Shown: positions 15,410-37,566, numbered from the stretch's first letter. The stretch is DNA of 44,239 bases from a virus (IMGVR_UViG_3300024520_000013:1-44239); one strand, 5' to 3'. Notes: generated by a model from the letters alone, not told the origin. Numbers and translations: made by a program.

Positions 15410-15435
15410 CCCGATCTGGTTAGTCCCAGATCTGG
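15410..15435. promoter_or_regulatory. CCCGATCTGG (15410-15419) plus palindromic CCAGATCTGG (15426-15435) in a divergent intergenic region
   Basis: A copy of the recurrent intergenic motif, sitting between the minus-strand start at 15385 and the plus-strand start at 15488. Confidence 0.5.
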
Positions 15436-15487
15436 ATAGTCAACAGGAATCCGTCTACCCTGACCCCAACTCCAGGAGGATTCCAAG

Positions 15488-16162
15488 ATGACCAGATTTC
15501 ACCACCTCAGTCGAAGCATAGCAGTCGACACAATCTCAGCGGCAGACCCAGTCGTGGTCACCACTACAACCGATCACGGTCTTGTTGAAGGCGGCATGCT
15601 TTTGATCAGCGGCGTCGTCGGCGATATCAACACCATCGTCCACAACCCGGTACGTGGTAACCCCCAACCGGTCAACTACACCGTCGTCAGCGACACCACG
15701 TTCTCACTGCAAGATGTGGACGGCACCGACCTCGACACCACCGGTCTCACCTACACCAGCGGTGGAACCGTTCTGATGGACGACCCGCTCATCGAGTGGG
15801 ACAACCTCAAGGCAATCACTTTCGATCCGATCGATGTGACACAAGGGTACGACAAGGCCGGTGTCGGGCTCACCCCCGCACTCATCATCGCCATCGACGC
15901 GAAAGATCCGGTCGTCACCGGAGCGAAAGACGTGCAGCTCACGCTCTACTCACGACCGAGCCCTAGTCAAGAGTGGCGACTTACACGGGCGGCAATCGGA
16001 TTTGGGACAACCGGATTGGGCTCCGCAAGTTGGCTCACCCTGAACGGCCGCAGCGTACTTCACCTTGTGGACGAGTATGCTCTCCCCAACATCCAATTCC
16101 GCTCGCTGGCAGTAGGCTTGGGAACGAATCAGTACAAGGTCCAGGTGGTCACCAGCGGTTAG
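15488..16162 (+). CDS. Fiber/decoration-like structural protein candidate
   Basis: The N-terminal segment ISAADPVVVTTTTDHGLVEGGMLLISGVVGD...YTVVSDTTFSL resembles the small beta-barrel module common in phage fiber and decoration proteins. Confidence 0.5.
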   Translation: MTRFHHLSRSIAVDTISAADPVVVTTTTDHGLVEGGMLLISGVVGDINTIVHNPVRGNPQPVNYTVVSDTTFSLQDVDGTDLDTTGLTYTSGGTVLMDDPLIEWDNLKAITFDPIDVTQGYDKAGVGLTPALIIAIDAKDPVVTGAKDVQLTLYSRPSPSQEWRLTRAAIGFGTTGLGSASWLTLNGRSVLHLVDEYALPNIQFRSLAVGLGTNQYKVQVVTSG

Positions 16163-16488
16163 CCGTTCTTGATCTCAGCGATCTCCTCGTCGCGGAGACC
16201 TAATCGCCGCACAGAATGCAAGCGGTGTAGGACAGTGTTCATCGCTTCAATCAGTTCTACCGCACCCTGAGCGTAGGGCTGCGGCAGGTACATTCGCATC
16301 GTGAGCAGATCGCTCTGCACCTTCTGCAACATCATCTCTGCCGTCTTCGCACGCACCGTCATCGTGTCGTGCGCGAGCGCGATCGAGTCGCGCGCGGAAA
16401 CCAGCTTCTTGCACGTCTCGCACTGCGGATTTTCACCGGTAACGAGCGTGCCGGGGGGCATCTCGATCCCTCCCTTCGAGGTCGTCAT
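16159..16488 (-). CDS. Hypothetical protein
   Basis: 109-aa ORF, last gene of a 4-gene minus-strand operon. It contains a single CETC pair. Confidence 0.5.
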   Translation of the reverse strand: MTTSKGGIEMPPGTLVTGENPQCETCKKLVSARDSIALAHDTMTVRAKTAEMMLQKVQSDLLTMRMYLPQPYAQGAVELIEAMNTVLHRLHSVRRLGLRDEEIAEIKNG

Positions 16489-16725
16489 CTATCCGCCCTC
16501 CCACATCTTCTTGAATTGCTTGGGCTCGATCTCCTGGCACTTCGTGCGCTTGTCGCAGTCCTGGCACACCGCGTAGTAGTAGCCCTTGTCGCGCCCTCCC
16601 CCGGTGCTGGTCACGTTGTAGCCGAAGCAGTGGCCGCAGTGCGGACGCACGTACGACGTGACGACGGGATTGGTATATGGCCGTTTCTTCGCCGTCCTGC
16701 TTTTCTTCTTCTTCGTTACCACCAT
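16489..16725 (-). CDS. Small zinc-ribbon protein
   Basis: 78 aa with a basic N-terminus and the Cys pairs CGHC ... CQDC..C. Confidence 0.55.
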   Translation of the reverse strand: MVVTKKKKSRTAKKRPYTNPVVTSYVRPHCGHCFGYNVTSTGGGRDKGYYYAVCQDCDKRTKCQEIEPKQFKKMWEGG

Positions 16726-16765
16726 GGTTCCTCGTTGACCGCGCCATCCCCTCCCAAGGGACTGC

Positions 16766-16775
16766 CCCGATCTGG
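16766..16775. promoter_or_regulatory. Recurrent intergenic motif CCCGATCTGG
   Basis: Lies in the 66-nt gap between two minus-strand genes, flanked by GGGACT on both sides. Confidence 0.5.
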
Positions 16776-16791
16776 GACTCGCCAGAAGTTA

Positions 16792-17241
16792 TCACTGATG
16801 TGGTGGCTTTTCCTGCCCTGGTTCGGTTTTCTCCTCGAAGCTCCGCAAATCGAGTCCAAACTCGTCGCGCACTTGCTCCTCAACTGTCACGTCGATGTGA
16901 TCCTTCAGCACCGCGAGACCCGCAGGGTCTTGAGGGTTCACGCCGTGAATCGAGTAAAACTCCTCGACCGACATCACGTCCATACCCCACGCACTGTGGT
17001 GCGGACAGAACGTCGGCCACTTGATCTTGGGGTTGGTCAACTTGCCGCACCACGGCGCGACATCGAACCGCGTTTCGTACACCGAACACAGACCACCCTT
17101 CAGGAAGGGACACGAGTGGCTGGAGTACACCGCCACGTCGTTGATCACCGCTTGGAAGTAGCAGCACCGGCCCAGGTCGGGGCACGCGCTGCACTCGCCA
17201 AGATCAATCGTAGCCGGTGACGGTTCCGGAGGGCTTATCAT
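16792..17241 (-). CDS. YkgJ-like cysteine-cluster protein (putative Zn/Fe-chelating domain)
   Basis: ECSACPDLGRCCY followed by CPFLKGGLCSVYETRF resembles the CxxCxxCC ... C..L.G..C.IYE.RP pattern. Confidence 0.5.
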   Translation of the reverse strand: MISPPEPSPATIDLGECSACPDLGRCCYFQAVINDVAVYSSHSCPFLKGGLCSVYETRFDVAPWCGKLTNPKIKWPTFCPHHSAWGMDVMSVEEFYSIHGVNPQDPAGLAVLKDHIDVTVEEQVRDEFGLDLRSFEEKTEPGQEKPPHQ

Positions 17242-17590
17242 CTTCGATCACCGGGTCCGCGATGGCTTGCTGCTCGATCTCCGCACTCGACCGCATCAGC
17301 GGCACGGGCTCGCAGGCGACGGGCTCGGGCACACCCACTCGCAAGGTCTCGCACTCGTCTTCGATCCACCCGGCGCGGAACTTCACTGGAGCGGGGCCAC
17401 GAACCGCGAGCGACGTCTCGAACGAACCGTTGTCGATGAACATCGCGTGGCAAGGTCCGTCAACCCAGGCATGGTAACCATCTTCCAAATACCCGCCGGT
17501 GCTCGCTCCACACTTGCAGGTGGTGACCGGCTCGTCTGCGAGCTGGAGCTGTCGAACGTCGTGACATGCCGTGCAGTAGAGGAGTTTCAT
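17204..17590 (-). CDS. Zinc-ribbon protein
   Basis: The N-terminus reads MKLLYCTACHD...TTCKCG. 128 aa, first gene of the minus-strand operon. Confidence 0.55.
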   Translation of the reverse strand: MKLLYCTACHDVRQLQLADEPVTTCKCGASTGGYLEDGYHAWVDGPCHAMFIDNGSFETSLAVRGPAPVKFRAGWIEDECETLRVGVPEPVACEPVPLMRSSAEIEQQAIADPVIEDDKPSGTVTGYD

Positions 17591-17637
17591 GGACCCGGAA
17601 TCTACTGGCTTGCACCTCGATCCGCCAGCGGGTAAGA

Positions 17638-17647
17638 CCCGATCTGG
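17638..17647. promoter_or_regulatory. Recurrent intergenic motif CCCGATCTGG
   Basis: About 48 nt upstream of the minus-strand start at 17590; followed by GAGTCCCC...GGGGAGTCCC. Confidence 0.5.
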
Positions 17648-17826
17648 CGAGTCCCCGCTTTGGGGAGTCCCTAGGGCGCTGCCGAGCGCGATTCAGAATG
17701 ACCAGGAACGCCCGTTCGCCAGTAGCCGACGGGGCATCCGCACTCTTCCGATTCACCCCCTCCCTAACCTAGGTCGCTCGGCAGCGTCCCACTTTTTCAA
17801 CATGGCGAGGAGAACAGGTCGGTCGG

Positions 17827-18405
17827 TTGCAAGAGCACGTCAAGACGGCATCGTTCCCGTTCCATCCCTCGATCGGAGACTGGCTCGCCGCCGGTGGTGA
17901 CCTCACCGTAAACGGCCAGAGCTTCACCGCGAACACAACACGAGGCGACCCGAAGAGCGGCGACGAGTCCGCCGTGTTCGAAGCGTTCTTCAACCTCGGC
18001 GAAGGTGCGTGGGTGAAGGGCACGGTCACCTACTACCCGAACGATCCGATCGCGGACTGCTGGTTCATGCTCGGGTATGGGCACGAGGGATGGAGCGCAC
18101 CGCACGTCAAGCGACAGGACGTGTTCGTCGTCGATGCGAAGTCTACCGTATCGATCGTGCAACTCGACAAACTGAAGTACGGCGAGGTTCTGAACACGCA
18201 AACCACGCTGCCGCGACACTTCACCTACGACTTCGACAAGGGAGTGATCTCAAAGACGAAGAGGACGTCGTCGGGCGATCGCGACATTCATAACCTGGGC
18301 GAAGGCATCGACACCGGCGAAGAAAAACCAGGACCAAACTACGAACCAGACCCAATACTCGACGACGACGACCTCGACCAACCTCCACCAGAACTATATC
18401 CATGA
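17827..18405 (+). CDS. Hypothetical protein with an acidic C-terminal tail
   Basis: 192-aa ORF with a TTG start per the ORF track, beta-rich, ending ILDDDDLDQPPPELYP. Confidence 0.5.
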   Translation: MQEHVKTASFPFHPSIGDWLAAGGDLTVNGQSFTANTTRGDPKSGDESAVFEAFFNLGEGAWVKGTVTYYPNDPIADCWFMLGYGHEGWSAPHVKRQDVFVVDAKSTVSIVQLDKLKYGEVLNTQTTLPRHFTYDFDKGVISKTKRTSSGDRDIHNLGEGIDTGEEKPGPNYEPDPILDDDDLDQPPPELYP

Positions 18406-18602
18406 CCAAAACACTGTATGGGCGAGACAACTGCCCCATCTGCAAAAAGACCGCCGACTACCTTCACCCATATCACGATCGGAAAGGTTACTACTCCGGG
18501 CGGGCTTGTTCCGACCGTTGCGCACGTTCATTACCGGGCCAAGGGGAGATGTGGAACTACGAGCCGGACCATGGGGAAGACGACGAAGGAGATGCGTGGT
18601 GA
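18402..18602 (+). CDS. Small Cys-containing protein (CPIC motif)
   Basis: 66 aa, LYGRDNCPICKK..., with ATGA overlap to the upstream gene. Confidence 0.5.
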   Translation: MTKTLYGRDNCPICKKTADYLHPYHDRKGYYSGRACSDRCARSLPGQGEMWNYEPDHGEDDEGDAW

Positions 18603-18748
18603 GGCGAAAACCGAAACCTCCTGACACTTTTCCCGTGGCCCCGGCAACGGCTCCCGATGAGCCCGCGAACCACCTTCTTCTTCCCGAAAGCCGGGGCCTC
18701 GGGACCTTTCGCACACCCGTAGTCACTCTCACGGAGAGGGAGGGATGA
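18596..18748 (+). CDS. Possible small ORF bridging two genes
   Basis: A GTG start overlaps the upstream TGA, and the stop overlaps the ATG at 18745 (ATGA). About 50 aa and Pro-rich, so weak. Confidence 0.2.
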   Translation: MVRRKPKPPDTFPVAPATAPDEPANHLLLPESRGLGTFRTPVVTLTEREG

Positions 18749-19191
18749 GTCTCGTGCTGCAACCGCTCAACCTGGATGAGGCGAAGCTCTTCGTCAAGCG
18801 CCACCATCGCCACCATGAGCCGCCGCTGTCTCACAAGTTCTCGATCGGTGTGAACGACGGAGAGACTGTTCGCGGCGTAATCATCATCGGGCGCCCAGTG
18901 TCGCGAGTTCTTGACAACGGTTGGACGGTTGAAGTAACCCGGTGCTGCACTGATGGCGCGAAGAACGCCGCGTCAATGCTCTATGCGGCAGCGTGGCGCG
19001 CAGCTCGATCAATGGGTTACCGAAGACTCATCACCTACACGCTCGCGACTGAGCCCGGGACGTCCCTGATCGCCGCGGGATTCCGCGTGTTGTACAAGAC
19101 CAAACCCAATCGGTCGTGGAACGCTCCAGGCCGACCACGGGTCGACAAGCACCCACTCGGCGCAAAGCTGCTATGGGAGAGGGAGGCTTGA
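18745..19191 (+). CDS. XF1762-family protein (GNAT-like fold)
   Basis: FVKRHHRHHEPP..HKFSIGV...IIGRPVSRVLDNGWTVEVTRCCTDG..NAASMLYAAAWRAARSMGYRRLITYTL matches my memory of this prophage family. Confidence 0.65.
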   Translation: MSLVLQPLNLDEAKLFVKRHHRHHEPPLSHKFSIGVNDGETVRGVIIIGRPVSRVLDNGWTVEVTRCCTDGAKNAASMLYAAAWRAARSMGYRRLITYTLATEPGTSLIAAGFRVLYKTKPNRSWNAPGRPRVDKHPLGAKLLWEREA

Positions 19192-19197
19192 ACGACC

Positions 19198-19389
19198 TTG
19201 CTGACCCCGGCTGAGTACGAAAGTACAGGATACCCCGAGCTCGGATGCTGCGAGGAACGGCTGCGGTTGCTCGCCGACAAACTCCGCCTCACCAGGGAGG
19301 TGGCTTCCCTCACGCGGCTGTACGGACTCCTGAAACTCCAGGTTGAACTCATTTACTCGGAGAAGGATGACATCACGAAGGACAACTGA
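19198..19389 (+). CDS. Hypothetical small protein
   Basis: 63-aa ORF with a TTG start, helical. Confidence 0.4.
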   Translation: MLTPAEYESTGYPELGCCEERLRLLADKLRLTREVASLTRLYGLLKLQVELIYSEKDDITKDN

Positions 19390-19404
19390 AGCAAACCCCT
19401 TCAA

Positions 19405-20076
19405 TTGACGACGATCTATCTATCAAGCCCCGGATCCCAATTGCGAGCGGACTACTGCCGGAACCTTCCGGTGCTCATGTCGTTCGGGGTCTACCGGAAG
19501 GTCGGATGGGTGGAGAAGTACGTCCCGTCGTTCTCAGGTCTGCTCATCGATTCGGGAGCTTACTCCGTCCTGACCACCGGGACTGAGATCAACGTGGACG
19601 AGTTCGCCGAGTGGGCGCAGAGATTCCCGCACGCAGATGCGGTGGCGGCACTGGATGACATCTCGGGGGACTGGGAGCAGGGACTCCGCAACTGGGAAGC
19701 GCATCCGTGGATGTTCCCTACGTTTCACGACACCGACCCTTGGGAAGCTCTCGCCGGTATCTTGGAGAAACATCCCAAGTGGATCGGGCTTGGAATGAAA
19801 CCGCCGAGAACGTCTGCACGATGGCTAGACGAGACTCTGGAACGGATACCAGATCAAATCCACATCCACGGGTGGGAGTTGCGAGCGTTCACGGATCGCC
19901 ACCGCATCGACTCGTTCGACTCAACCAACTGGTTCCGCGACTCATGGGCGGTCAAGAACGCATATCCCTGGCTAACCCCTGCCGAGTCCTTGGAGATCAT
20001 CGTCAAGCGATACCAGCGCGAACACCGAATCATCAAAACAAGGAGCACAACGCCATGTCTGTTCGATACCCAGTGA
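19405..20076 (+). CDS. dpdA: DpdA-like (TGT-family) DNA transglycosylase candidate
   Basis: LLIDSGAYSV and IDSFDSTNWFR resemble the two catalytic-Asp motifs of TGT/DpdA. There is no Zn-site cysteine cluster. The gene overlaps queE by 22 nt. TTG start per the ORF track. Confidence 0.55.
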   Translation: MTTIYLSSPGSQLRADYCRNLPVLMSFGVYRKVGWVEKYVPSFSGLLIDSGAYSVLTTGTEINVDEFAEWAQRFPHADAVAALDDISGDWEQGLRNWEAHPWMFPTFHDTDPWEALAGILEKHPKWIGLGMKPPRTSARWLDETLERIPDQIHIHGWELRAFTDRHRIDSFDSTNWFRDSWAVKNAYPWLTPAESLEIIVKRYQREHRIIKTRSTTPCLFDTQ

Positions 20077-20666
20077 ACGAGATCTTCTTCTCGATCCAAG
20101 GCGAAGCGCACTTGCGCGGCTTCCAGATGGCATTCCTTCGCCTAGCCGGTTGCTCGGTCGGATGCCCAGAATGCGACACAAACTACGCGGCAAAGTCCAC
20201 CCACGATGCGCGAGACCTATCCTTCCGAGTTCTGGAGGAGATTCCCTCATCAGTCAAGGACAGGTGGGTGTGGATCACCGGAGGAGAACCCACCGATCAC
20301 GATTTGGTCCCGCTGATTCGCGAACTTCGCGCCCGTGGATTGTCGGTCGCCGTCGCCACCGCTGGGCACAAGCGGTTCACCCCAACGGTTGACTGGTTGT
20401 CTGTCTCACCTCACAAGGCTGAAGACTTCTCCCAACGCTACGGACACGAGATCAAACTAGTAGACGGACTCCACGGGCTTGACCTCGACGAGTTCGTTGG
20501 CGAACACCGCGACGGATACACCGACTTCTGGTACCGCTACGTGCAACCGCTGTCGGTGGACGGGGTGGAGCAACCCGACAGTCTGGCCCGATGCATGGAC
20601 TTCCTTGACCGGCACCCGAATTGGGCGCTCTCCCGTCAAGACCATCTCGCTATAGGAGTGCGCTGA
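20055..20666 (+). CDS. queE: 7-carboxy-7-deazaguanine synthase QueE (radical SAM)
   Basis: The ATG at 20055 follows AAGGAG. Signature elements are NEIFFSIQGEA, LAGCSVGCPECDTNY, ITGGEP, SVSPHK, YVQPLS and a C-terminal WALSRQDHLAIGVR. The longer ORF-track start at 19707 is a spurious extension. Confidence 0.9.
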   Translation: MSVRYPVNEIFFSIQGEAHLRGFQMAFLRLAGCSVGCPECDTNYAAKSTHDARDLSFRVLEEIPSSVKDRWVWITGGEPTDHDLVPLIRELRARGLSVAVATAGHKRFTPTVDWLSVSPHKAEDFSQRYGHEIKLVDGLHGLDLDEFVGEHRDGYTDFWYRYVQPLSVDGVEQPDSLARCMDFLDRHPNWALSRQDHLAIGVR

Positions 20667-20691
20667 TCTAACTCCAACAGGGCCGACTGAC

Positions 20692-21087
20692 ATGACAACC
20701 GAACCGCAACCTATCCCAACCTTCGACTACACCAACTTCGTCGCCAACAAGACCATGACCATAGTCTCGTGTGGCACCGTTGTCCTTCGTAAGGAGTTCA
20801 ACGTTGAGGGGTTTGCTTCTACACCAACGCTGAACGCAAACGACGTAATCACGCTCTGCAAAGGCTACAGTGGGTTGATGGCTGCGCTGGAGCTCCAAGC
20901 TAGCGCGCTAGAAGAACACGACGGGCAGAACTGGGACATCTTGGCGACTGTGCTGTCGGAGTGTGCCCGCGCCGCCATCGCCAAAGCGATGGACCAGCGC
21001 ATCGCCGAGCTGGTGGCCGAAGCCAAGCGACTGGAGCGTGAAGCGCCATCCCACCGGAAATCTGATGGACCGCTACGACCTGACTGA
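20692..21087 (+). CDS. Hypothetical protein
   Basis: 131-aa ORF. Confidence 0.5.
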   Translation: MTTEPQPIPTFDYTNFVANKTMTIVSCGTVVLRKEFNVEGFASTPTLNANDVITLCKGYSGLMAALELQASALEEHDGQNWDILATVLSECARAAIAKAMDQRIAELVAEAKRLEREAPSHRKSDGPLRPD

Positions 21088-21355
21088 CCTGACAACCGGG
21101 CTCGACCACAAAGCCACACCAAACTACGGCAACGGCAAGTGGGTGTTGGCCTCCGATGCCTTCGCTTGGGTCGACGAACTCACCGCAGACATCGCGCACC
21201 TGCAGCACGAGGTGGACGCGGTGAAGGCAGACTACGAGCGTGCCACCTACCGCTCCTACCAAGACCGTCCCTTCATCTGCGTCAGACCTACGCCACTAAA
21301 GCTGGCAGCAGATTCGGAACGTGCGCAAGGTGAGGGCCCCACGAAAGATACATAG
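21065..21355 (+). CDS. Hypothetical protein
   Basis: Internal ATG at 21065 (MDRYDLTDL), 96 aa, overlapping the previous gene by 23 nt. Confidence 0.5.
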   Translation: MDRYDLTDLTTGLDHKATPNYGNGKWVLASDAFAWVDELTADIAHLQHEVDAVKADYERATYRSYQDRPFICVRPTPLKLAADSERAQGEGPTKDT

Positions 21356-21406
21356 GATAGGGGGCCCCATTGGTCGCTCCCCCCTTGCTCAAATCGGCAT
21401 TTTTTC

Positions 21407-21416
21407 CTCGATCTGG
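21407..21416. promoter_or_regulatory. Variant of the recurrent motif (CTCGATCTGG)
   Basis: Sits at the start of the 633-bp non-coding region, just after a T6 run. Confidence 0.4.
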
Positions 21417-21541
21417 GCGTGGCGGGACGGATCCAGTATCCTGTGCGCCATTCGATCCTAATCCCTTCGCGTAGTGTGGGTTATGTCGGTGGTTCGATAC
21501 CCTTGGGACCGTTGCAAGGGACCAATTGACGAGATGGCAGT

Positions 21542-21582
21542 ACGTGGCAGCTACGTGGCAGCGACGTGGCACTTACGTGGCA
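21542..21582. repeat. Four ACGTGGCA iterons with an exact 11-bp period, plus one degenerate copy upstream
   Basis: Copies begin at 21542, 21553, 21564 and 21575. AGATGGCA at 21532 is a 6/8 match. Confidence 0.85.
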
Positions 21583-21690
21583 GCTATAACAAGGGAAGCG
21601 GACTAGACTAACGTGCTTTGTTAGGGTGTTCGTGGCACTTGCCAGAAATATAGACACACCACACCGTGTTTCCGTATGCACGTTTCTGTG

Positions 21691-21706
21691 GTGTAAGCGC
21701 TTACAC
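21691..21706. repeat. Perfect 16-bp palindrome GTGTAAGCGCTTACAC
   Basis: Read directly. It is preceded by ACACCACA...TGTGGTGT, an 8-bp inverted repeat with a ~23-nt spacer. Confidence 0.85.
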
Positions 21707-21732
21707 GAATCGCCTATACGGGTCTGTACGTA

Positions 21733-21768
21733 CTGTACATGCCATGTACAGTACAAGTACAAGTACAA
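21733..21768. repeat. 9-bp inverted repeat CTGTACATG-c-CATGTACAG followed by (GTACAA)x3
   Basis: Read directly. There are seven GTAC tetramers within ~45 bp, and this is the most AT-rich patch of the region. Confidence 0.85.
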
Positions 21769-21814
21769 GCCCCGTGGGTATGGGCAATTAGGCGTTCTGG
21801 CCGAGTGCCACGAA

Positions 21815-21847
21815 CCCGCCACCATCCCGCCACCATCCCGCCACGAT
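21815..21847. repeat. Three tandem 11-bp units CCCGCCACCAT (third copy CCCGCCACGAT)
   Basis: Read directly; period 11 bp. Confidence 0.8.
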
Positions 21848-21988
21848 TGCGCCATTCGAGACCATCCGTTCGCACCCTTCGCGACGTTTGCCGGTTGACA
21901 AGCTCTTGCCACCGATCGCGCTGTTGGTCGAGAATGTCGGCAATGGACGCGAACCACATCTGGTGAGTGCCACAACCTACGAAACCGA

Positions 21989-22213
21989 ATGAACCGAAAC
22001 CAACGAGACGAGCCCGTTACGGATCGCCCTCTGCCAGGGCGAATCTACTCACTTACCGGCGGCCCCGGTGTCCCTTGCATCGCGAACGGCGATAGCTGGC
22101 GCGAGTCCGATCTCGGCGACGCCGACGAATTCCACGCAAACGAACGTGCAAAAGTTCTCGCACGCCGAGCTGAAAAGGACGCACGACGTCACATACGCGA
22201 GGAGGGAATCTAG
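21989..22213 (+). CDS. Hypothetical protein
   Basis: 74-aa ORF, the first gene after the iteron region. Confidence 0.45.
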   Translation: MNRNQRDEPVTDRPLPGRIYSLTGGPGVPCIANGDSWRESDLGDADEFHANERAKVLARRAEKDARRHIREEGI

Positions 22214-22214
22214 C

Positions 22215-22871
22215 ATGGTACGCAAAACGAAAGCGGAACGGCAAGCGGACGAGAACCGCGCGCGAATCGTGCGCCACCTGGAAACGTCTGGTGTCATCGA
22301 TTCCATGATTGCATTCGCCGAGAAACATGACGACTGGCGCGAACAAATCGACGCGCACAATTACGGTGAACGTCTCGGCAAGATCCCGCGCGATTGCACC
22401 GGTGTCGTGCGCCAGATTCGAAACAACATCACTGCGAACGTGATGGAAGAGTGGCCGAACCTCGCAACTCTTTCGCGATTCGTCCGCATCGCGATTTGCT
22501 TCGATGGTGACGCGTTCCGCCAGCCTGGACCGTGCGCCGAGATTGCATCGCTACTCCGCCAGATGGCGGAACGGTTCGAAGCCGAAACGGATCTCGAATT
22601 GATCCCGCAGTGGTATGGAACGTGGCGCGATGCAAACGGCAACGCATGCGCAAACGTCGATATCGAAACAACGGAAGCGAACGGGCAGAACCTAGGACGC
22701 ATCGCGTCATCCGGTACCGGTGGTATTGTCGATGGGCTTGTGGCTGCGCTGGAGACGCTGCTGTTTGGTGTCACCGAAGACGTATCCAACAACAATGGGC
22801 GCGTCGACTTGCCCGCCCTCGAGGACACTGCCCGCGCCGCGCTTGCCGCCGCCAAGGGGGGAGACCGATGA
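22215..22871 (+). CDS. Hypothetical protein
   Basis: I moved the start to the ATG at 22215 (MVRKTKAERQ), right after the upstream TAG. 218 aa. Confidence 0.55.
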   Translation: MVRKTKAERQADENRARIVRHLETSGVIDSMIAFAEKHDDWREQIDAHNYGERLGKIPRDCTGVVRQIRNNITANVMEEWPNLATLSRFVRIAICFDGDAFRQPGPCAEIASLLRQMAERFEAETDLELIPQWYGTWRDANGNACANVDIETTEANGQNLGRIASSGTGGIVDGLVAALETLLFGVTEDVSNNNGRVDLPALEDTARAALAAAKGGDR

Positions 22872-22931
22872 CACGTCCAGACTACGAACCTATCACCGCT
22901 CGTGTTGAATCGTCGCAGGAGGACAGCAGCA

Positions 22932-23802: not shown

Positions 23803-23820
23803 GACGTTCGAAAGCTCGAA

Positions 23821-23855: not shown

Positions 23856-23875
23856 GATTCTGTACGAGTCATCGG

Positions 23876-24657: not shown

Positions 24658-24684
24658 GGAATCTGGTTGCGAGAACCAAATCTG
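24658..24684. promoter_or_regulatory. Two ATCTGG half-motifs (GGAATCTGG, CAAATCTGG) followed by GTAGTC, resembling the 15410-15440 element
   Basis: Compare CCGATCTGGTTAGTCCCAGATCTGGATAGTC (15411) with GGAATCTGGTTGCGAGAACCAAATCTGGGTAGTC (24658). Both lie upstream of plus-strand genes. Confidence 0.4.
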
Positions 24685-24791
24685 GGTAGTCTGGAACGCG
24701 GTTCCGACTGCTTCGTAATCGTGAGGGATTCATTCTCCCGTAGGCATGAGTGCGAGGTGGTCGGGACCATCACCCAACCACAAGGAGGTTC

Positions 24792-30151: not shown

Positions 30152-30612
30152 GAGGTCACCAGCGTCCCGACCGGGGTGGTCACACCACATTTGATTGCTT
30201 CCGTGGGCTGATCAAGCACGATTGAGATGCGCTTGATCATCGCGGGCTTGATCGTCAGTGTGCCCTCGACCACCACCTGTTTTTCGCTGCCCTTCTCGAT
30301 ACGCACCTGATGGAAGTAGGCAAGCGTCGGTGGATCACCGGTGCCGTTCGCGACGACGTCGAGCGTCGATGTGTCGGCTTGCAAGAGATCGACGTCCAGG
30401 ATCCCCGAGACGGGTGTTACCAGCGTCACCCCCGAACCGATCTCCTTGTACACCTGCCATGAATAGTCATCTACGGCAGGCTGCACCACGTAGTGGATCT
30501 CGGCACCGGTCAATCCGGTGAGGTCCACTGCTACCGCATCGGTGTCTTGAACAGTAAATTGGAAGGTGATGTCGTCACCCTCGTAAATAGTTTGGTTGAC
30601 GGTAGTAGCCAT
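30148..30612 (-). CDS. Ig-like/beta-sandwich structural protein candidate
   Basis: TIYEGDDITFQFTVQDTDAVAVDLTGLTGAEIHYVV is the pattern seen in phage baseplate and fiber Ig-like domains. Confidence 0.5.
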   Translation of the reverse strand: MATTVNQTIYEGDDITFQFTVQDTDAVAVDLTGLTGAEIHYVVQPAVDDYSWQVYKEIGSGVTLVTPVSGILDVDLLQADTSTLDVVANGTGDPPTLAYFHQVRIEKGSEKQVVVEGTLTIKPAMIKRISIVLDQPTEAIKCGVTTPVGTLVTS

Positions 30613-30827
30613 TAGATTGGATCGACGGATTGCGTTTTTTCGATATCGTAAGTGGTGGCCGTGTTCTGCTGCACGTCGAATACCGTGGTCTTCGACTGCT
30701 CGACGTCATATTCCACGTCCGCGATGATTCGCACGATGTGTCCACTCCATCCATCCGGTATTGCTGCCACTTGGACAGCCCCGAATGATCGGCCAAGATT
30801 CTGCACCGCTCCGAAGGATCTGCCCAT
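30612..30827 (-). CDS. Hypothetical small protein with a duplicated N-terminal octapeptide
   Basis: MGRSFGAVQNLGRSFGAVQ...; TGATG-coupled to the tailspike gene. Confidence 0.5.
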   Translation of the reverse strand: MGRSFGAVQNLGRSFGAVQVAAIPDGWSGHIVRIIADVEYDVEQSKTTVFDVQQNTATTYDIEKTQSVDPI

Positions 30828-32122
30828 CAGCTTGTGAGTCCCACGCCCTCGGTGTCAATTAGTAGCCCACCATTCGCGTCAGAGTTCAGCGAGAAGTCAT
30901 CGCCGGCCGCGTCAGAAAACGGGTCGGCTGTGAGAGGGATATCATCACTATGCGCTGTGATGTTGTTCCGCTGGCCGGACGTGTTGTTGTAGTAGGCATT
31001 CGGGCCGATAAATAGCGATGCATTATCCGAGTAGGTGTAATTGATTCCGTAGCCGCCGTTGCTGACAAATATGCAGTTTTCCACGGTTACGCTCGCCTTC
31101 TCTGGCTGGCTTCCAGAGTGGCCGAGAATCCGAAGTCCATCTAGCGTGTTGTTGTAGAAGGTGCAGTTGTAGAATTGATGGACCGTTGCATTCGTAGCTG
31201 TGACTTCAGCACCATAGGTATCGCATCCGCTGAATATGCACTCAATGAAGATCGGACCACCTTGCCCAGCAGAAGCACCGTTTACCCCCGCGAACCCATT
31301 GTCGCTTCCCTGGAATCTACACCGCCGAAGTGACCCACCGTAACCGCCAGACCAGTAAAATGGCTGGCGGGCCATGTTGCGGAAAATGCAATCTACAGCG
31401 GTCCAGTAGCATCCGCCATCGGCGTAGATTCCGTAACCTAATCCGCCCTCGCAAATGCAATCCCTTACCACCGAGCCCTGACCGCGCTCCGTTGCCGAGA
31501 ACCTAATCCCACCACCGAATACCTGTAGCGTGTGGAGAGTTGTCAGGGTGAGACCTAATAGATAGACCATCGGCACGTCAATTTGAAACGTCCACATGTG
31601 ACCGGCGGCGTGCGATCGGATGACGGGTGCAGCACCAGGCGCAGCCTGGAATGTCACGGGTCCATCCGTGATGGTCCCGCCCACCGGATTGTCGATGGCC
31701 TCCGACACATCGTAGGTCCCGGCCTCGAATTCAAAAGTCCACCCGGCCAGCATATCTTCCCAGTCGTTATTGGTGGACTCGCTATCTAGCGTCTGCCGCT
31801 TACCTCCAACCGCCCACGACTTGGCTGCGAAGTCAGCATCAAAAGCGGTATTCGTCACGATAGCCGTGCAGGTCGCCGCGCCTCCCGTGAAACTCGCGAT
31901 CGAAAATAGGTGCCGTTCGCCCGCATTCGTTTCGCACCATAGCGCATCGCTACCAGCGTCGTCCGCGACACCCGTGAAGTCGACGGTTTCGTTCAACGTC
32001 AGCGTCGTATCGAGAGCCACCCCCTCGGCATTCGTACCAGTCACCGCCGTCGCTGGCCCAGCACCACTCGCGGCGGTATCGCTCCCGGTTGACGCGTTGT
32101 AGACGATTGTCGGACGTGCCAT
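30827..32122 (-). CDS. Right-handed parallel beta-helix tailspike / polysaccharide depolymerase candidate
   Basis: The N-terminus TIVYNASTGSDTAASGAGP is followed by repeated C/N ladders (DCICEGG, VDCIFRN, RRCRFQG, IECIFSGC, YNCTFYNNT, ENCIFVSNGGYGI) and a C-terminal DPFSDAAGDDFSL. Confidence 0.8.
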   Translation of the reverse strand: MARPTIVYNASTGSDTAASGAGPATAVTGTNAEGVALDTTLTLNETVDFTGVADDAGSDALWCETNAGERHLFSIASFTGGAATCTAIVTNTAFDADFAAKSWAVGGKRQTLDSESTNNDWEDMLAGWTFEFEAGTYDVSEAIDNPVGGTITDGPVTFQAAPGAAPVIRSHAAGHMWTFQIDVPMVYLLGLTLTTLHTLQVFGGGIRFSATERGQGSVVRDCICEGGLGYGIYADGGCYWTAVDCIFRNMARQPFYWSGGYGGSLRRCRFQGSDNGFAGVNGASAGQGGPIFIECIFSGCDTYGAEVTATNATVHQFYNCTFYNNTLDGLRILGHSGSQPEKASVTVENCIFVSNGGYGINYTYSDNASLFIGPNAYYNNTSGQRNNITAHSDDIPLTADPFSDAAGDDFSLNSDANGGLLIDTEGVGLTS

Positions 32123-33137: not shown

Positions 33138-33173
33138 CCGCCTCTTCTCCTGCGCGCCTGACCGCGCGTCTCT

Positions 33174-33437
33174 TGGGACCAATCCCTGGGACCAATCTTG
33201 GTCCCAGGCGGCGCGTTTGGTCCCAAATGGGAACCTGACCGAAAACGCGCTACGTGACCTCTCGCTGCCGCCGACGACGTCGACAGCCCGATTTGCTCAC
33301 TGGTCCCACATCCCCGCTGTGCGGATTTAGGATCCTGTGAGTATAAAAACTCTTGCGGGTTCAAGTCCCGCCTCTCGCACCACTTAGCTCGCTGGGCCGC
33401 AGCCGCACTAGCCTGTGGGACCATTTTGTGGGACCAA
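33174..33437. mobile_element. attP: seven TGGGACCA arm-type sites flanking a tRNA-derived core
   Basis: Direct copies at 33174, 33187, 33416 and 33429. Inverted copies (TGGTCCCA) at 33199, 33218 and 33301. Copies 2 and 3 form TGGGACCAA-tc-TTGGTCCCA. Confidence 0.75.
33355..33382 (+). other. tRNA 3-prime fragment (T-arm, acceptor strand and ACCA) serving as the attP core
   Basis: GCGGG-TTCAAGT-CCCGC-CTCTCGC-A-CCA. The upstream 17 nt cannot fold into an anticodon arm, so this is a fragment and not a full gene. Confidence 0.8.
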
Positions 33438-33466
33438 ACAGGCCAAATCGTGGTAGTGTCCTGGGC

Positions 33467-34519
33467 ATGCCTACGAGAAAGAAGCTTCCCACTGGTGTCG
33501 TCCAACACGGCGACAAGTTCCGCTACCGCATCACGATCGACGGCAAACGCCGGAACTCGTCGTGCTTCGGTACTCCCGAGCAAGCTGCCCTGGCACGCTC
33601 GGAAGCCACCGGTCTGGCGAAGGCTCGACCGGCCAAACGGGCGACCCTGCAGGACGGGTTCGACCGGGTGATCGACCGTGGCGGCATCCGCCCCGGCACC
33701 CTCGAATTCTACCAGGACGTCTTCGCCAAGATCGTGAAGATCATCCCCGCCGACACCGGTCTGCTCGCCATCGCCGAGCCGAAGCTCCTGGCGTTCCTGA
33801 AGCGTCGCGAGAACGAGACCGGCATCCCGACGATCGTCAAGGAGCTGGTCATGCTCGGGCGGATCTTCAACGTCTGCGTCGAGGACGGGCTCGTCGAAAC
33901 CAACCCGGTCAGACCATTCCGAGCGAAGTACCGGAACCGGCTGAAGACCCGGAAGAAGGATCCCCGGTGGGTCAGCCTGGGGGAGTTCGAGGAGGTCTTC
34001 GCCAGGATGGCTGAATGGGCCCCTGTGAAGCGTCACGCGAACCGGTGCGGAGATCTCGCCGTGGACGTGCTCGTCCCGCAGATTCTCTTCTGCACCGGTC
34101 TGAGGCGCGCTGAACTGGGTAGGCTCAAGGTCAAGGACATCGACCTCGCCGATGGCGTGATCTACCCCGAAGGCAAGTGCAGCGACGCGACCGTCGCGAT
34201 CCCGAAGCGTCTGCGCCCCTACCTCGTCGCACACCTCAAGACGCTGAAGCCGAACGAGTTCATCGTCCCGCAGCGGAAGGGCGACAGGGACGGTGCCGCT
34301 GTGCGTCGCGTCTTCCAGCGCTGGCAGCAGCGACTCCAGATCGACTGGACGCCGCACGCGCTGCGCCACGGGCTTGGTAGCCTCCTGGCCGCGCAGGGTG
34401 CGAACACGAAGACGATCATGCGTGCGCTGCGCCATGAGACACCGGAAATGAGCCTGCACTACCAGTCCATGACGGACGAGTCCGTGCGGAACGCAGTAGA
34501 CGACGCTCTCGCCGGGTAG
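33467..34519 (+). CDS. int: Tyrosine integrase
   Basis: ATG at 33467 (MPTRKKLPTG). Catalytic landmarks TGLRRAEL, HALRHGLGS and LRHETPEMSLHY. The longer ORF-track start runs through the tRNA fragment. Confidence 0.95.
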   Translation: MPTRKKLPTGVVQHGDKFRYRITIDGKRRNSSCFGTPEQAALARSEATGLAKARPAKRATLQDGFDRVIDRGGIRPGTLEFYQDVFAKIVKIIPADTGLLAIAEPKLLAFLKRRENETGIPTIVKELVMLGRIFNVCVEDGLVETNPVRPFRAKYRNRLKTRKKDPRWVSLGEFEEVFARMAEWAPVKRHANRCGDLAVDVLVPQILFCTGLRRAELGRLKVKDIDLADGVIYPEGKCSDATVAIPKRLRPYLVAHLKTLKPNEFIVPQRKGDRDGAAVRRVFQRWQQRLQIDWTPHALRHGLGSLLAAQGANTKTIMRALRHETPEMSLHYQSMTDESVRNAVDDALAG

Positions 34520-34521
34520 TC

Positions 34522-34779
34522 TCACGCGCCCTTCCTCTTGGCGCGGCGACGCGCCTCGCCCTCGATCTCGCGCCAAGTGCGGTCGTTCTCTTCAGGGCTG
34601 ACCGCAATCGTGTTCTCCTCGATGAACCGGTGAACGAGATCCTTCCGGAAGAACCACTTCGCGCCGACTCTCAGTCGCGGGACGAACTTGCCCCGCTGGA
34701 CGAGATTCTTGAGCGCATCCCTCGACATCGGTAGCAAGTCGAGCACTTGGTCGAGAGAGTAGTGTTCCGGTGTGCCCAT
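34522..34779 (-). CDS. xis: Excisionase-family HTH DNA-binding protein
   Basis: YSLDQVLDLLPMSRDALKNLVQRGKFVPRLRVGAKWFFRKDLVHRFI. Convergent with int, 2 nt apart. Confidence 0.75.
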   Translation of the reverse strand: MGTPEHYSLDQVLDLLPMSRDALKNLVQRGKFVPRLRVGAKWFFRKDLVHRFIEENTIAVSPEENDRTWREIEGEARRRAKRKGA

Positions 34780-34857
34780 CGCCGGGTGATTCTAGCCAAG
34801 GGGGGACTGACCAGAATAGGGTCTTCGAAGGAAAAAGCGGACCCACCACCGGTGGTG

Positions 34858-35046
34858 CTATCGGGTGACCCAGAACACAATCACTCCGACCAGCAAGTGC
34901 GTCGCGAGGAGCACCAATGCGAGCAAGAATCCCGAGACGCGCGGGGGGTAGGGTTCCGCGCGCGGCCGGAGAGGTGCGGGAGTGTAGCCGGGTTCGGGAG
35001 TTAGGTCCGACCTCGTTTCTCTCTTGCCGTTACGCGCCGCCGCCAT
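34858..35046 (-). CDS. Possible small membrane protein
   Basis: 62 aa with a Pro-rich N-terminus and the C-terminal hydrophobic segment FLLALVLLATHLLVGVIVFW. Overlaps the upstream gene by 46 nt. Confidence 0.35.
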   Translation of the reverse strand: MAAARNGKRETRSDLTPEPGYTPAPLRPRAEPYPPRVSGFLLALVLLATHLLVGVIVFWVTR

Positions 35047-35612
35047 TTCTTCAGCTCCCCTTCGATAGCTTGATTGATGGTCGCCCAGGTGCGCGAAAAA
35101 TCGGGACAGATGTTGGCGAGGTGGTCCTGCACCATCTCCAGTTTGGTCTCAAACTCTTCCTCTCCGATTGGTTCCAGCGACGGACTCAACTTGCAACCCA
35201 CCGGGAGTTGCCATGACTCCGCGACTTGAACACGGTCGAGCAGATTTGCAAGACCCTTTTCGTTGCGCACATTGAGCAGGAACCCAATGAAGTGATGGTC
35301 GAGGAACAGGCCAGCAGGCAACAAACGCTTCGACCGGGAAGTCTTGCTGTTCGCCTCGCTCGGCAGGATATCGTAGATGCTGCACTTCGCCGCCTTGGCG
35401 ATCGAGGCGATGGCATAGCAATTCGGTGTCGAACGGTTCTGCTCCCACTTCTTGTAGCCAGAGAGCGAGATTGACTCGCTCCACAACTCCTCGTGGATTG
35501 CACAAACGCGCTCGAAGAACTCGTCCTGGTTGAGCTTCGGGATCAGCACGTTTCGCACTGCCCGGATCCGCCCTCCCAGGTCGTACGGGATAGTGATCGT
35601 GGTAGGCTTCAT
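35001..35612 (-). CDS. XRE-type HTH protein (repressor candidate)
   Basis: LGGRIRAVRNVL...ISLSGYKKWEQNRSTPNCYAIASIAKAAKCSIYDIL. I prefer the ATG at 35612 over the TTG at 35633. Confidence 0.6.
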   Translation of the reverse strand: MKPTTITIPYDLGGRIRAVRNVLIPKLNQDEFFERVCAIHEELWSESISLSGYKKWEQNRSTPNCYAIASIAKAAKCSIYDILPSEANSKTSRSKRLLPAGLFLDHHFIGFLLNVRNEKGLANLLDRVQVAESWQLPVGCKLSPSLEPIGEEEFETKLEMVQDHLANICPDFSRTWATINQAIEGELKKWRRRVTAREKRGRT

Positions 35613-35652: not shown

Positions 35653-35662
35653 CCCGATCTAG
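35653..35662. promoter_or_regulatory. Variant of the recurrent motif (CCCGATCTAG)
   Basis: Lies between the SSB-like gene stop and the HTH gene start, flanked by AGTCCC and GACTCCC. Confidence 0.45.
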
Positions 35663-35669
35663 TGACTCC

Positions 35670-36122
35670 CTAGAACGGGATCGAGGTGTGGACCTTCTTG
35701 TCCGGTGGATCAACCTTGCCAGGACGTGCCGTGGTGACCTCTGGGCGACGCTCTCCCTGGAACTCTTTCCCCATCACCACCGTGATATTCGCCCCCCGGT
35801 CGATCAACTCCTCCGGGTTGAACTCCGACCCAGATGTCACACCGAGCGCGGTGAGGGTTTCGCGCCGCTTCTTGATAACCATCGGGTGAAGATCATCGGG
35901 GTGGTCGAACGAGAGGAACTGCCGCACTCGCGCACCGTCGTAATCGCCGCCGACGATCGCCCAGGTCAGCCACACCGCATCGTAGGGGTTGCCGCTCTTC
36001 TTGCTCGTCAACTCGCGCGTCTCCACCGAGTAGACGACTGCCGCGTAGTCACCGGGCACGCAGCCCGCGATGTCTTGGTCGAGTTCTTCGTTCGTTCGTT
36101 CGCTGTCGTGAAACTTCACCAT
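35670..36122 (-). CDS. SSB-like protein (single-strand DNA binding candidate)
   Basis: 150 aa ending in ...TSIPF, an SSB-style IPF tip. Lies immediately downstream of the Sak4-like ATPase with a 1-nt overlap. Confidence 0.5.
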   Translation of the reverse strand: MVKFHDSERTNEELDQDIAGCVPGDYAAVVYSVETRELTSKKSGNPYDAVWLTWAIVGGDYDGARVRQFLSFDHPDDLHPMVIKKRRETLTALGVTSGSEFNPEELIDRGANITVVMGKEFQGERRPEVTTARPGKVDPPDKKVHTSIPF

Positions 36123-37009
36123 CAGATTGTCACCGTTTGTTCTTGTCGCTGTTTGTTGAGTACTTCGAGAATGGATGTTGCTTGGTCTGGCGAGAGGTCT
36201 TCGAACTGCGAGACCCCACGCGTGCGCAAGCCTTCGCGCACGTCGTTGTGTTCGAGCTTCAGCACATCGACCAGCTCCTGGAACTCGGCCACCTGCTCGT
36301 CGGTCGCGCGCGGTTTCGGCGCGGATGCCTGGAACGACGATGGGAACGTGTCGAGGAAGACCTTGTGCAACGGCTCGCTGAGAACCGTTCCTTGCGGCAG
36401 CTCGGCGACACGACTCTTTGCCACCGTGGAGCGGAACGTGCTGCCGCGTGACGACATGTTGATCACGAGATCGAACTCGTGTTCGAATCCTTTCTGCCCC
36501 TCTGGGATCACACCGACTCGTCGTCGCTGATCACCCGCGCCCTCCCACTCTTCCTTCGCGCGCGCCGTGCAGATCACCGGGATCTCAAGTCGTCGAAGGT
36601 CGGCAGTGAATCTGCGGTGCAGTCGCTTGACTGTGCCCCACGCATCTTGATCGAGCGCTGACTCGAACTGCTGCTTTCCCTTCTTGGCGTGCTTGAACTC
36701 TTCGATCTGGTCCTGCAGGTTGTTGTACCAGGGAGTCGTCGAGTCACAGAAGAGGAGGCGGCACGGGTCGCCACTAGGGCAAGTCGGATCAGAGAGGAGA
36801 TCCTTCACAACCGCATGCGCCTCCATAATCGATGGGCAGTGGTCCAGCTTGCCACCGGGATACTGGAACTTGAAACGCTCGTGGTAAAGACGGCAGGAGC
36901 GCTCCGAGTCGAGCACGATGCCGTGTCCGCCGAGCTGGTGGATGAGGTTGACACCGACCCAGGACTTCCCGGTACCGCTGCCACCGATGAGGAGTGCGTT
37001 GAAGCTCAC
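36122..37009 (-). CDS. Sak4-like/RecA-family AAA ATPase (recombination)
   Basis: Walker A ALLIGGSGTGKS and Walker B RLLFCDSTT. 295 aa, with a typical pairing to an SSB-like gene. Confidence 0.7.
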   Translation of the reverse strand: MSFNALLIGGSGTGKSWVGVNLIHQLGGHGIVLDSERSCRLYHERFKFQYPGGKLDHCPSIMEAHAVVKDLLSDPTCPSGDPCRLLFCDSTTPWYNNLQDQIEEFKHAKKGKQQFESALDQDAWGTVKRLHRRFTADLRRLEIPVICTARAKEEWEGAGDQRRRVGVIPEGQKGFEHEFDLVINMSSRGSTFRSTVAKSRVAELPQGTVLSEPLHKVFLDTFPSSFQASAPKPRATDEQVAEFQELVDVLKLEHNDVREGLRTRGVSQFEDLSPDQATSILEVLNKQRQEQTVTI

Positions 37010-37082
37010 GAGACCCCCATCAGGATTGTGCCATCAACTCCAACTTGACCGCTTGTCGTCTGCAGTTTCGTTTCGCTTTCAC

Positions 37083-37520
37083 TCATGAGGGTTGCTCTTT
37101 GTGCGTTCGAGCTTCTTGAATTCGGGTTGCGAAAGAATGCCACTCACCGCCGCCATCAGGATTGACGTCGAGAGTCGCGAGGGTCATCAACTCTTCGGTG
37201 ATCGGGCGCACCGACTGATCGGGCATCTCCAGGTTCTTCACGAGTAAGCGCGCCAACTCCCACGAGAACTTCTGGATGTGGCGTCCGTCAGCCGCCTTCA
37301 CGCCCGTTCTGAGCTTGTAGAACGGAGCTTCGGTGAAACCGCACGCCTTCGCGATGCGGCGCGGAGAGACGCGATGGTGAACGTGTGCCATCCACCGGAC
37401 GAACTGTTCGAGTTGACTGGTGTCGGAGACGGGCTTGCCGTCCACGATCCTGCCGGGGATCCAGTTGGGGACAGGTTCCTCGAAGAGCCGCAGATTCAGC
37501 CGAACGGTCGTCTCGCCCAT
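37083..37520 (-). CDS. Hypothetical protein with a possible HTH
   Basis: 145 aa. SPRRIAKACGFTEAPFYKLRTG is HTH-like. First gene after the late operon ends. Confidence 0.45.
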   Translation of the reverse strand: MGETTVRLNLRLFEEPVPNWIPGRIVDGKPVSDTSQLEQFVRWMAHVHHRVSPRRIAKACGFTEAPFYKLRTGVKAADGRHIQKFSWELARLLVKNLEMPDQSVRPITEELMTLATLDVNPDGGGEWHSFATRIQEARTHKEQPS

Positions 37521-37556
37521 GCCGGGGATTGTAGCGACGAACGCAGCCAGGACTCA

Positions 37557-37566
37557 CCCGATCTGG
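37557..37566. promoter_or_regulatory. Recurrent intergenic motif CCCGATCTGG
   Basis: About 40 nt upstream of the minus-strand start at 37520. On the minus strand, TACAAT lies 9 nt before the ATG. Confidence 0.5.

Follow-up and report, generated by a model that had tools for sequence, protein, structure and literature searches.

A dispersed 18-bp two-part motif in the gene gaps of an uncultured phage genome: putative operators of a phage-encoded regulator

We analysed the viral contig IMGVR_UViG_3300024520_000013 over its full 44,239 nucleotides (nt; referred to as the window) with regard to a ten-mer, CCCGATCTGG, that recurs in the gaps between its genes. The termini of the window are identical (1-127 = 44113-44239) and the assembly is therefore circular, i.e., it represents a complete phage genome of ~44.1 kb (~44,112 bp) with a G+C content of 59%. 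Public gene calls for contigs of identical sequence served as the gene map, according to which 10.8% of the genome is non-coding; identical contigs of other samples show no sequence variation. Among the phage proteins matched are an SU10-type portal and capsid, the large terminase (TerL) and a primase/helicase. TerL is at most 24% identical to that of any isolate (no close cultured relative), and a megablast search with 23 kb of the phage against isolated phages gave no match. Judging from the presence of an integrase, a protein of the helix-turn-helix (HTH) family HTH_17 and a phage attachment site (attP), the phage is temperate. Its default gene direction is the minus strand. Exceptions on the plus strand are the integrase gene, the lone gene 15488-16162 and the block 17827-25381, which encodes Mom-like, DpdA/TGT-like and QueE-like DNA-modification proteins.

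The 18-bp two-part unit

The ten-mer is the 3' half (positions 9-18) of an 18-bp two-part unit, GGGACT-NN-CCAGAT-cK-GG, whose last four positions (cKGG) are also conserved. About 17 copies of this unit are present in at least 10 gaps, almost exclusively in non-coding DNA. A pattern scan places the exact ten-mer at 15410, 16766, 17638 and 37557, all on the plus strand, and finds variants at 21407, 25421 and 35653, as listed in the first-pass annotation; all of these fall in gaps of the gene map. The ATCTGG pairs reported there are present as well, i.e., a perfect palindrome (CCAGATCTGG) at 15426 and a pair at 24658-24684. The GGGACT/AGTCCC-type flanks, earlier described as half-sites around most copies, belong to the motif itself. 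This follows from an unbiased scan seeded with all non-coding 10-, 12- and 14-mers: the motif family ranks first, ahead of the attP arm repeats.

The ten-mer is enriched, with 13 matches at up to one mismatch vs. 4.4 expected (0/100 shuffles reached 13), and the pattern CCNGATCNGG is found 6 times vs. 1.2 expected. For the 8-mer CGATCTGG, we count 9 matches vs. 2.85 expected. The latter value comes from shuffles and covers both strands together; it replaces the 0.7 per strand assumed before. The 8-mer also has three coding matches (36703 on the plus strand, 11720 and 34336 on the minus strand) and not the single one first noticed. Dispersed ten-mers with 4-5 copies are common in this genome (~20 coding ones), so that the significance of the ten-mer lies in its non-coding location and not in its copy number. 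A maximal-order Markov k-mer test was uninformative at ten-mer length.

The two-part pattern separates the two fractions of the genome. Allowing up to 2 mismatches, the 14-mer GGGACT-NN-CCAGAT has 16 matches vs. 3.64 +/- 1.88 expected (0/100 shuffles reached 16). Of these, 12 are non-coding, where 0.47 +/- 0.72 are expected and the maximum in 300 shuffles was 4, while the 4 coding matches per 39 kb are about at chance level. The position weight matrix (PWM) of the full unit has 18 columns, was trained on 14 sites and holds 17.6 bits. It yields 17 sites with at least 11.5 bits vs. 1.85 in shuffled genomes. When left out of the training, 12/14 training sites still score at least 11.8 bits, and three further non-coding sites outside the training set are recovered (33443, 35662 and 37557 on the minus strand). 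The units and their partial copies are the following.

13196-13205: CCGGATCAGG, across the stop codon of TerL and the gap that precedes gene 12976-13191
13206..13223, plus strand: unit D, GGGACTGACCATATCTGG, 23.9 bits, within the final codons of TerL
15410..15427, minus strand: unit C, GGGACTAACCAGATCGGG, 25.7 bits, holding the ten-mer at 15410
15426..15443, minus strand: unit C', TTGACTATCCAGATCTGG, 19.3 bits, containing the perfect palindrome
16758..16775, plus strand: unit B1, GGGACTGCCCCGATCTGG, 22.0 bits, holding the ten-mer at 16766
16774..16791, plus strand: unit B2, GGGACTCGCCAGAAGTTA, 18.6 bits
17627-17640: degenerate third unit beside A2 and A1, GGGTCTTACCCGCT
17638..17655, minus strand: unit A2, GGGACTCGCCAGATCGGG, 24.7 bits, holding the ten-mer at 17638, in the divergent control region 17591-17826
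17654..17671, minus strand: unit A1, GGGACTCCCCAAAGCGGG, 18.3 bits
21634-21651, plus strand: weak unit, 12.5 bits (1.7 bits when left out of training)
21954..21971, minus strand: unit GGCACTCACCAGATGTGG, 24.0 bits, in the 859-nt gene-free gap 21356-22214
~24658-24668: second half-site, AACCAGAT, which together with the next unit forms the ATCTGG pair
24676..24693, minus strand: unit CAGACTACCCAGATTTGG, 18.3 bits, in the gap 24632-24791
30825..30842, minus strand: unit GGGACTCACAAGCTGATG, 16.1 bits (9.3 bits when left out of training), where the beta-helix gene meets gene 30612-30827
33443..33460, minus strand: weaker unit GACACTACCACGATTTGG, 13.2 bits, outside the training set, in the right arm of attP
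34803..34820, plus strand: unit GGGACTGACCAGAATAGG, 21.8 bits, at the predicted promoter of the HTH_17 gene
35653..35670, minus strand: unit F, GGGAGTCACTAGATCGGG, 20.2 bits, identical with the variant at 35653
35662-35679, plus strand: inverted overlapping partner of unit F, 17.5 bits
37549..37566, plus strand: unit E, AGGACTCACCCGATCTGG, 22.2 bits, holding the ten-mer at 37557
37557-37574, minus strand: weak inverted partner of unit E, 11.5 bits

At three loci, units are arranged as head-to-tail pairs with a period of 16 bp (15426/15410, 17654/17638 plus the degenerate third unit, and 16758/16774). Tandem Repeats Finder independently reports a period-16 array at 15409-15441. Within such arrays, the terminal CGGG or CTGG of the ten-mer consists of the linker and the first Gs of the unit that follows. 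Two further loci carry overlapping inverted pairs (35653/35662 and 37549/37557).

The first-pass annotation had all copies reading the same way. This is true of the ten-mer, for which 5/5 asymmetric cores agree (p ~0.06), but not of the full unit, which lies on the plus strand in 7 cases and on the minus strand in 10. The apparent single orientation arises because CCCGATCTGG and CCAGATCGGG are mutual reverse complements and the core is near-palindromic. That is, the minus-strand units at 15410 and 17638 read CCAGATCGGG, and the plus-strand units at 16766 and 37557 read CCCGATCTGG. The unit as a whole is asymmetric, yet its positions 9-18 are near-palindromic in about half of the sites; the 10-bp core CCnGATCnGG is present in 6 sites, with the outer GGGACT box on one side only. 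We give the orientation bias little weight since core positions 3 and 8 vary freely in the near relative discussed below (core forms CCAGATCAGG, CCGGATCGGG and CCTGATCAGG).

Two of the listed variants, 21407 (CTCGATCTGG, plus strand) and 25421-25430 (GCCGATCTGG), are correctly placed but do not show the extended motif (outer box absent, PWM score below 9 bits) and are therefore possibly chance matches. A methylation motif as the defining feature of the site was considered and dropped: about half of the units lack GATC, and GANTC occurs in just 7/14.

Promoter context and conservation

Five genes (named by their start positions 15385, 17590, 37520, 34779 and 33467) lack a Shine-Dalgarno sequence and carry a TAnnnT hexamer 7-9 nt ahead of the ATG. 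All five are the first gene after a gap. This layout is suggestive of leaderless transcripts and of a host where such transcripts are common. A leaderless layout is described for SigA-like promoters of actinophages (PMC4351075), which serve here as an analogy only. A unit is present at all five predicted promoters (5/5) and overlaps the -35/spacer region or the -10 element at 4/5 (15385, 37520, 34779 and 33467). Unit positions in the following list are relative to the A of the ATG.

15393..15398, minus strand: -10-like TATCAT, 7 nt before the ATG at 15385 (gene 15137-15385), units at -42..-25 and -58..-41
17599-17604, minus strand: -10-like TAGATT of gene 17590 (17204-17590), units at -65..-48 and -81..-64 and a weak one at -50..-33
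37528-37533, minus strand: -10-like TACAAT of gene 37520 (37083-37520), unit at -46..-29
34789-34794, minus strand: -10-like TAGAAT of gene 34779 (HTH_17), unit at -41..-24
33454-33459, plus strand: -10-like TAGTGT of gene 33467 (integrase), unit at -24..-7, covering the -10 element

The distance between ten-mer and -10-like hexamer is variable (11, 23 and 33 nt), as had been noted. Unit F spans -58..-41 of the XRE-like gene 35001-35612. With regard to the downstream gene, units share its strand at 15385, 17590 and 35612 and lie on the opposite strand at 16725, 13191, 37520, 34779 and 33467. The units at 16758/16774, 13206 and 30825 are located in gaps or gene ends and have no recognisable -10 element; this includes the gap of B1 between genes 16792-17241 and 16489-16725. 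Those at 21634, 21954 and 24676 lie in large gene-free gaps of the plus-strand block. A scan with sigma-70 promoter and terminator consensus patterns found nothing at the unit sites.

Unit C' also overlaps a possible -35 element of the divergent plus-strand gene 15488-16162. This lone gene, placed inside the packaging/structural module and divergent from the double unit 15410-15443, encodes 224 aa, has a strong GGAGG ribosome-binding site and is conserved in the near relative (225 aa). Its product was dropped as a repressor candidate, given that it has no HTH, appears rich in beta-strands and matches no family.

The sole near relative (L001) is a 4.6-kb contig with a TerL that is 83% identical. 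Its 500 nt of non-coding DNA contain 4 units, scoring 17.5, 16.9, 12.1 and 8.0 bits, which occupy gaps homologous to sites B and C. There is in addition GGGACTTATCAGGG in a gap without counterpart in the window. A weaker L001 unit, at position 4492, is homologous to unit D. The best-conserved stretches of the C gap, compared between window and relative, are TTGACTnTCCAGATC and CCnGATCGGGGT. In the homologue of gene 15385, TACGAT is kept 8 nt before the ATG. The B unit of the relative is inverted with respect to its flanking genes, which argues for an orientation-independent function.

Retention thus holds for the near relative but not for the more distant L002, a contig of JGI 3300030329 with a TerL identity of 56%, in which the motif is absent. 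Such rapid turnover is in keeping with a regulator-operator pair. The gaps of L002 carry GC-rich CCCCCG...CGGGGG hairpins instead, together with a (TA)n tract (~8853-8866) and 5 copies of the 6-bp repeat GCCCCA (3513-3542).

TerL scans of viral_contigs and metagenome_contigs as well as a TerL profile scan of genome_contigs returned nothing, i.e., no prophage relatives, and a 29-base pattern of the C site had 0 matches in metagenome_contigs. Exact matches of GACTNNCCAGATCGGG in viral_contigs (at least 119, all single) were rejected as background and not signal. The sites at 34.8-37.6 kb are not comparable across relatives, because the neighbouring proteins are without close homologues. The sole homologue of the AAA_24 protein (42%) is encoded on a 1.9-kb contig.

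Putative operators and competing explanations

We regard the sites as probably being binding sites of a phage-encoded regulator that work as operators and perhaps as roadblocks, a reading in which we have moderate confidence. Both the binding of a protein and repression as its direction are what we infer from motif, positions and promoter overlap. Operators are preferred over a core promoter because the units vary in position, occur in two orientations, form arrays and overlap -35 and -10 elements; the first-pass annotation had likewise favoured an operator or factor-binding site over a fixed promoter box, and this holds up. Since the phage is temperate, a repressor network is expected.

Under this reading, a sequence-specific DNA-binding regulator would recognise the 18-bp sites. 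When bound over the -35/spacer or -10 region, it would block RNA polymerase at 15385, 37520, 34779 and 33467, making these sites operators. In the simplest case, it would stop the polymerase at an early promoter (37520), two late ones (17590, 15385) and those of xis and int. Sites in gaps without a recognisable promoter (16758/16774, 13206 and 30825) may act as roadblocks to read-through or as extra anchors for cooperative binding. Head-to-tail arrays with a period of 16 bp and overlapping inverted pairs could allow cooperative occupancy.

Candidate binders are the following three proteins.

34522-34779, minus strand: HTH_17 protein (excisionase/MerR-type, Xis-like) of 85 aa, HTH_17 match with E = 2.8e-8, its gene adjoining the integrase gene 33467-34519
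35001-35612, minus strand: XRE-like orphan protein of 203 aa with weak XRE/RstR-like similarity (residues ~11-119), a candidate repressor
37083-37520, minus strand: protein of 145 aa, no family match

The HTH_17 protein alone combines a regulator's size with a match to a DNA-binding family. For the other two, which the first-pass annotation had taken for HTH proteins, this is backed for the 203-aa protein by sub-threshold XRE/RstR-like matches only and for the 145-aa protein by none. A PDB sequence search with the 203-aa protein gave no match at E up to 10.

Several observations weigh against an operator network. The 16-bp period sets adjacent units on opposite faces of the helix, which is unusual for cooperative arrays. 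Moreover, 8/17 units are concentrated in 13.2-17.7 kb, where they flank the terminase gene and small upstream genes, and this could hint at another role. The TAnnnT feature is seen in 5/49 genes vs. ~1.2 by chance, the latter being a rough estimate, and the leaderless promoters are predicted from sequence only. Conservation is covered by one near relative and just 4.6 kb. On the protein side, the 203-aa candidate has sub-threshold family matches only and no homologue in the protein collection searched, and its AlphaFold model (no alignment) has a predicted local distance difference test score (pLDDT) of 37, is thus unusable and was not used for a fold search.

The best surviving alternative is a special case of the operator reading that names the binder. 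That is, the units may be sites of a dual-purpose recombination-directionality factor of the P2 Cox/186 Apl kind, with the HTH_17 protein binding attP for excision and promoters for the lysis-lysogeny decision. The protein's family support and its place beside the integrase speak for it, as do the unit at its own promoter (-41..-24), the unit over the integrase -10 in the right arm of attP and the head-to-tail direct repeats at three loci; Apl binds att and pR-pL through direct repeats (PMC7498355). There, however, the expected spacing is one helical turn (PMC7498355), while it is 16 bp at 15410/15426, 16758/16774 and 17638/17654. Furthermore, the attP unit is weak (13.2 bits), ~17 sites in at least 10 gaps are far above Cox/Apl usage, and many units are single or inverted and do not form direct arrays. 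We therefore consider this assignment unlikely.

Clearly less probable is that the unit is a core promoter for phage-specific transcription, which would depend on either a sigma factor of the phage or an RNA polymerase of the single-subunit type. An asymmetric, conserved stretch of ~18 bp confined to gaps would suit such a promoter, and the 2176-aa protein of the phage, which has no detectable homology, could hide an enzyme. The unit also bears a superficial resemblance to T7-type promoters (GGGACTCACCAGATCGGG vs. CGACTCACTATAGGGAG). On the other hand, no gene has an RNA polymerase or sigma family match, neither in our own scans nor in precomputed Pfam annotations of public contigs, and the 2176-aa protein is without PDB sequence match or DxDxD motif. 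About half of the units face away from the downstream gene and would give antisense RNA. Tandem units at 16 bp and overlapping inverted pairs are unlike promoters, and the units lie at a variable distance from separate -10-like boxes and from start codons.

A role in DNA packaging (small terminase, pac) or replication initiation instead of transcription control would account for the concentration of units around the terminase gene, and tandem repeats are typical of packaging and replication sites. However, units are also found at the promoters of the integrase, the Xis-like, the XRE-like and the first replication-module gene, 20 kb away. Better origin candidates are located elsewhere, namely 11-bp iterons at 21535-21586 and box repeats at 23837-23978. 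Such a role is, if anything, even harder to defend than a phage-specific promoter.

An RNA element (processing site, attenuator or terminator component) in minus-strand transcripts, also raised in the first-pass annotation, is highly improbable. It draws on the five asymmetric ten-mer cores: in minus-strand operons, the sense strand reads CCAGATCGGG at each of them. Against this, the sites share no structure (fold z-scores of -2.5 to +0.8 over 9 sites with differing structural contexts), have no Rfam match and show no terminator-like hairpins; full units are found on both strands, and the B site of the near relative is inverted with respect to its genes. Finally, chance or a compositional artefact is refuted, even though such a copy number of a ten-mer is ordinary in this genome, by the ~25-fold non-coding enrichment (no shuffle of 300 came close), the high leave-one-out scores and the retention of the motif in a diverged relative.

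Within the preferred operator reading, we also put forward a broader one, which is doubtful and meant as a tentative proposal. The sites might form a genome-wide operator-plus-roadblock network that arose independently of the mycobacteriophage stoperators in an uncultured podovirus-like temperate lineage. One small protein, possibly HTH_17 as both excisionase and global regulator, would read the 18-bp site in either orientation and assemble on the 16-bp arrays with neighbours on opposite DNA faces.

Known systems and further features of the genome

The closest known system is the operator/stoperator network of the Cluster A phages; our phage is not a member, and its sites appear to work alike. 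Cluster A repressors (L5 gp71, TipsytheTRex) bind as monomers via two domains, and their asymmetric 13-bp sites, more than 20 in number, are placed at promoters or in short intergenic spaces; the orientation of stoperators strictly follows the direction of transcription (PMC9283540). Shared features are the short asymmetric site (13-14 bp there, 14-18 bp here) with many copies genome-wide in a temperate phage, the location at promoters and in short intergenic spaces, and a two-part site that is compatible with recognition by two DNA-binding modules. In contrast, the units reported here occur in both orientations relative to transcription, i.e., they do not follow the orientation rule. Their number is lower (~17 vs. 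more than 20), and they form tandem 16-bp arrays and inverted overlaps. Furthermore, a PDB sequence search of the 203-aa candidate found no repressor homologue of L5 gp71 (N-terminal HTH plus Stoperator domain), and the virion genes are podovirus-like (SU10-type portal and capsid).

With 186 Apl and P2 Cox (PMC7498355, PMC3936717), the phage shares a gene for a small HTH/winged-helix protein beside the integrase, direct-repeat arrays, and sites at promoters plus a weak one (13.2 bits) in attP; it differs in the 16-bp period, the many more loci and the many single or inverted sites. Cluster O mycobacteriophages have a 17-bp dyad repeat, TGTTCGGNNNCCGAACA, in more than 30 copies (PMC4351075). 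It is likewise a short, genome-wide, mostly intergenic motif without an assigned binder, and Cluster O promoters give leaderless mRNAs. The Cluster O repeat, however, is a perfect dyad with 1/3 of its copies in coding sequence, whereas the unit described here is two-part, asymmetric and essentially excluded from coding DNA. The near-palindromic core CCAGATCTGG over core promoter elements in the divergent promoter region 15386-15487 recalls lambdoid OL/OR. Unlike lambdoid operators, with their dimer-binding dyads of 14-20 bp, the sites extend beyond one or two control regions next to the repressor gene; their core has only 10 bp and the outer box is asymmetric.

Most likely, the dispersed sites are a fresh example of familiar phage gene control, and apart from the dispersed-operator angle this is ordinary phage gene regulation. 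What results is a concrete and testable regulatory map (~17 sites, five promoters) for a temperate lineage without cultured relatives. Should all sites be read by one regulator, dispersed operators, a strategy so far best known from Cluster A actinophages, would have a second, independent example, and its rules would differ from those of Cluster A (no orientation dependence, 16-bp arrays). For motif analysis in general, a short near-palindromic repeat may be the junction of a longer asymmetric unit, such that strand bias should be checked on the full unit.

The integration region comprises the following elements.

33467-34519, plus strand: tyrosine integrase
33138-33466: attP, with a 62-nt tRNA-Leu(UAG)-like 3' part from the anticodon arm to CCA at ~33321-33382, its variable arm being AT-rich

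Copies of the arm-type repeat TGGGACCAAT surround the attP core at 33174-33438; there are 8 of them, in both orientations. The last 28 nt (3' end) of the tRNA part match more than 120 genomes, none of them with the same variable arm; they are common to many phyla and therefore do not point to the host.

The modification genes of the plus-strand block, all on the plus strand, are 18745-19191 (Mom-like), 19477-20076 (queuine tRNA-ribosyltransferase/DpdA-like) and 20055-20666 (QueE-like radical SAM protein). Given this module (18745-20666), the phage may bear 7-deazaguanine and/or Mom-type base modifications.

The structural module is closed by the gene of the 2176-aa protein on the minus strand (37746-44239, continuing to ~164); Pfam, PHROG and PDB sequence comparisons of the product gave no match. 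A role as internal or ejection protein is possible, and a hidden enzymatic domain could also be present. A 39-bp tandem repeat with 2.3 copies at the genome ends (29-117 and 44141-44229) encodes a repeated KKEEDKFPKDP segment at the N-terminus of this protein.

Other repeats are found in two further large gaps. The gap 21356-22214 holds an 11-bp tandem TGGCAGCTACG (4.8 copies, 21535-21586), GTACAA in 4.2 copies (21746-21769), a second 11-bp tandem GCCACCATCCC (3.5 copies, 21807-21844) and an attP-arm-like TGGGACCAAT at 21517; it may serve as an origin of replication or as another control region. The 508-nt gap 23803-24310 contains at least 6 boxes of type CCACGTTCGCC, direct and inverted, at 23837-23978 and a 17-bp tandem TGGCACGGGAACTGGAY with 2 copies at 24143-24179. 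Finally, a 9-bp tandem TGCCGCACC with 6.7 copies is located at 1155-1214, shortly before gene 1125-2480 ends and gene 169-1128 begins; its sense strand reads GGTGCGGCA.

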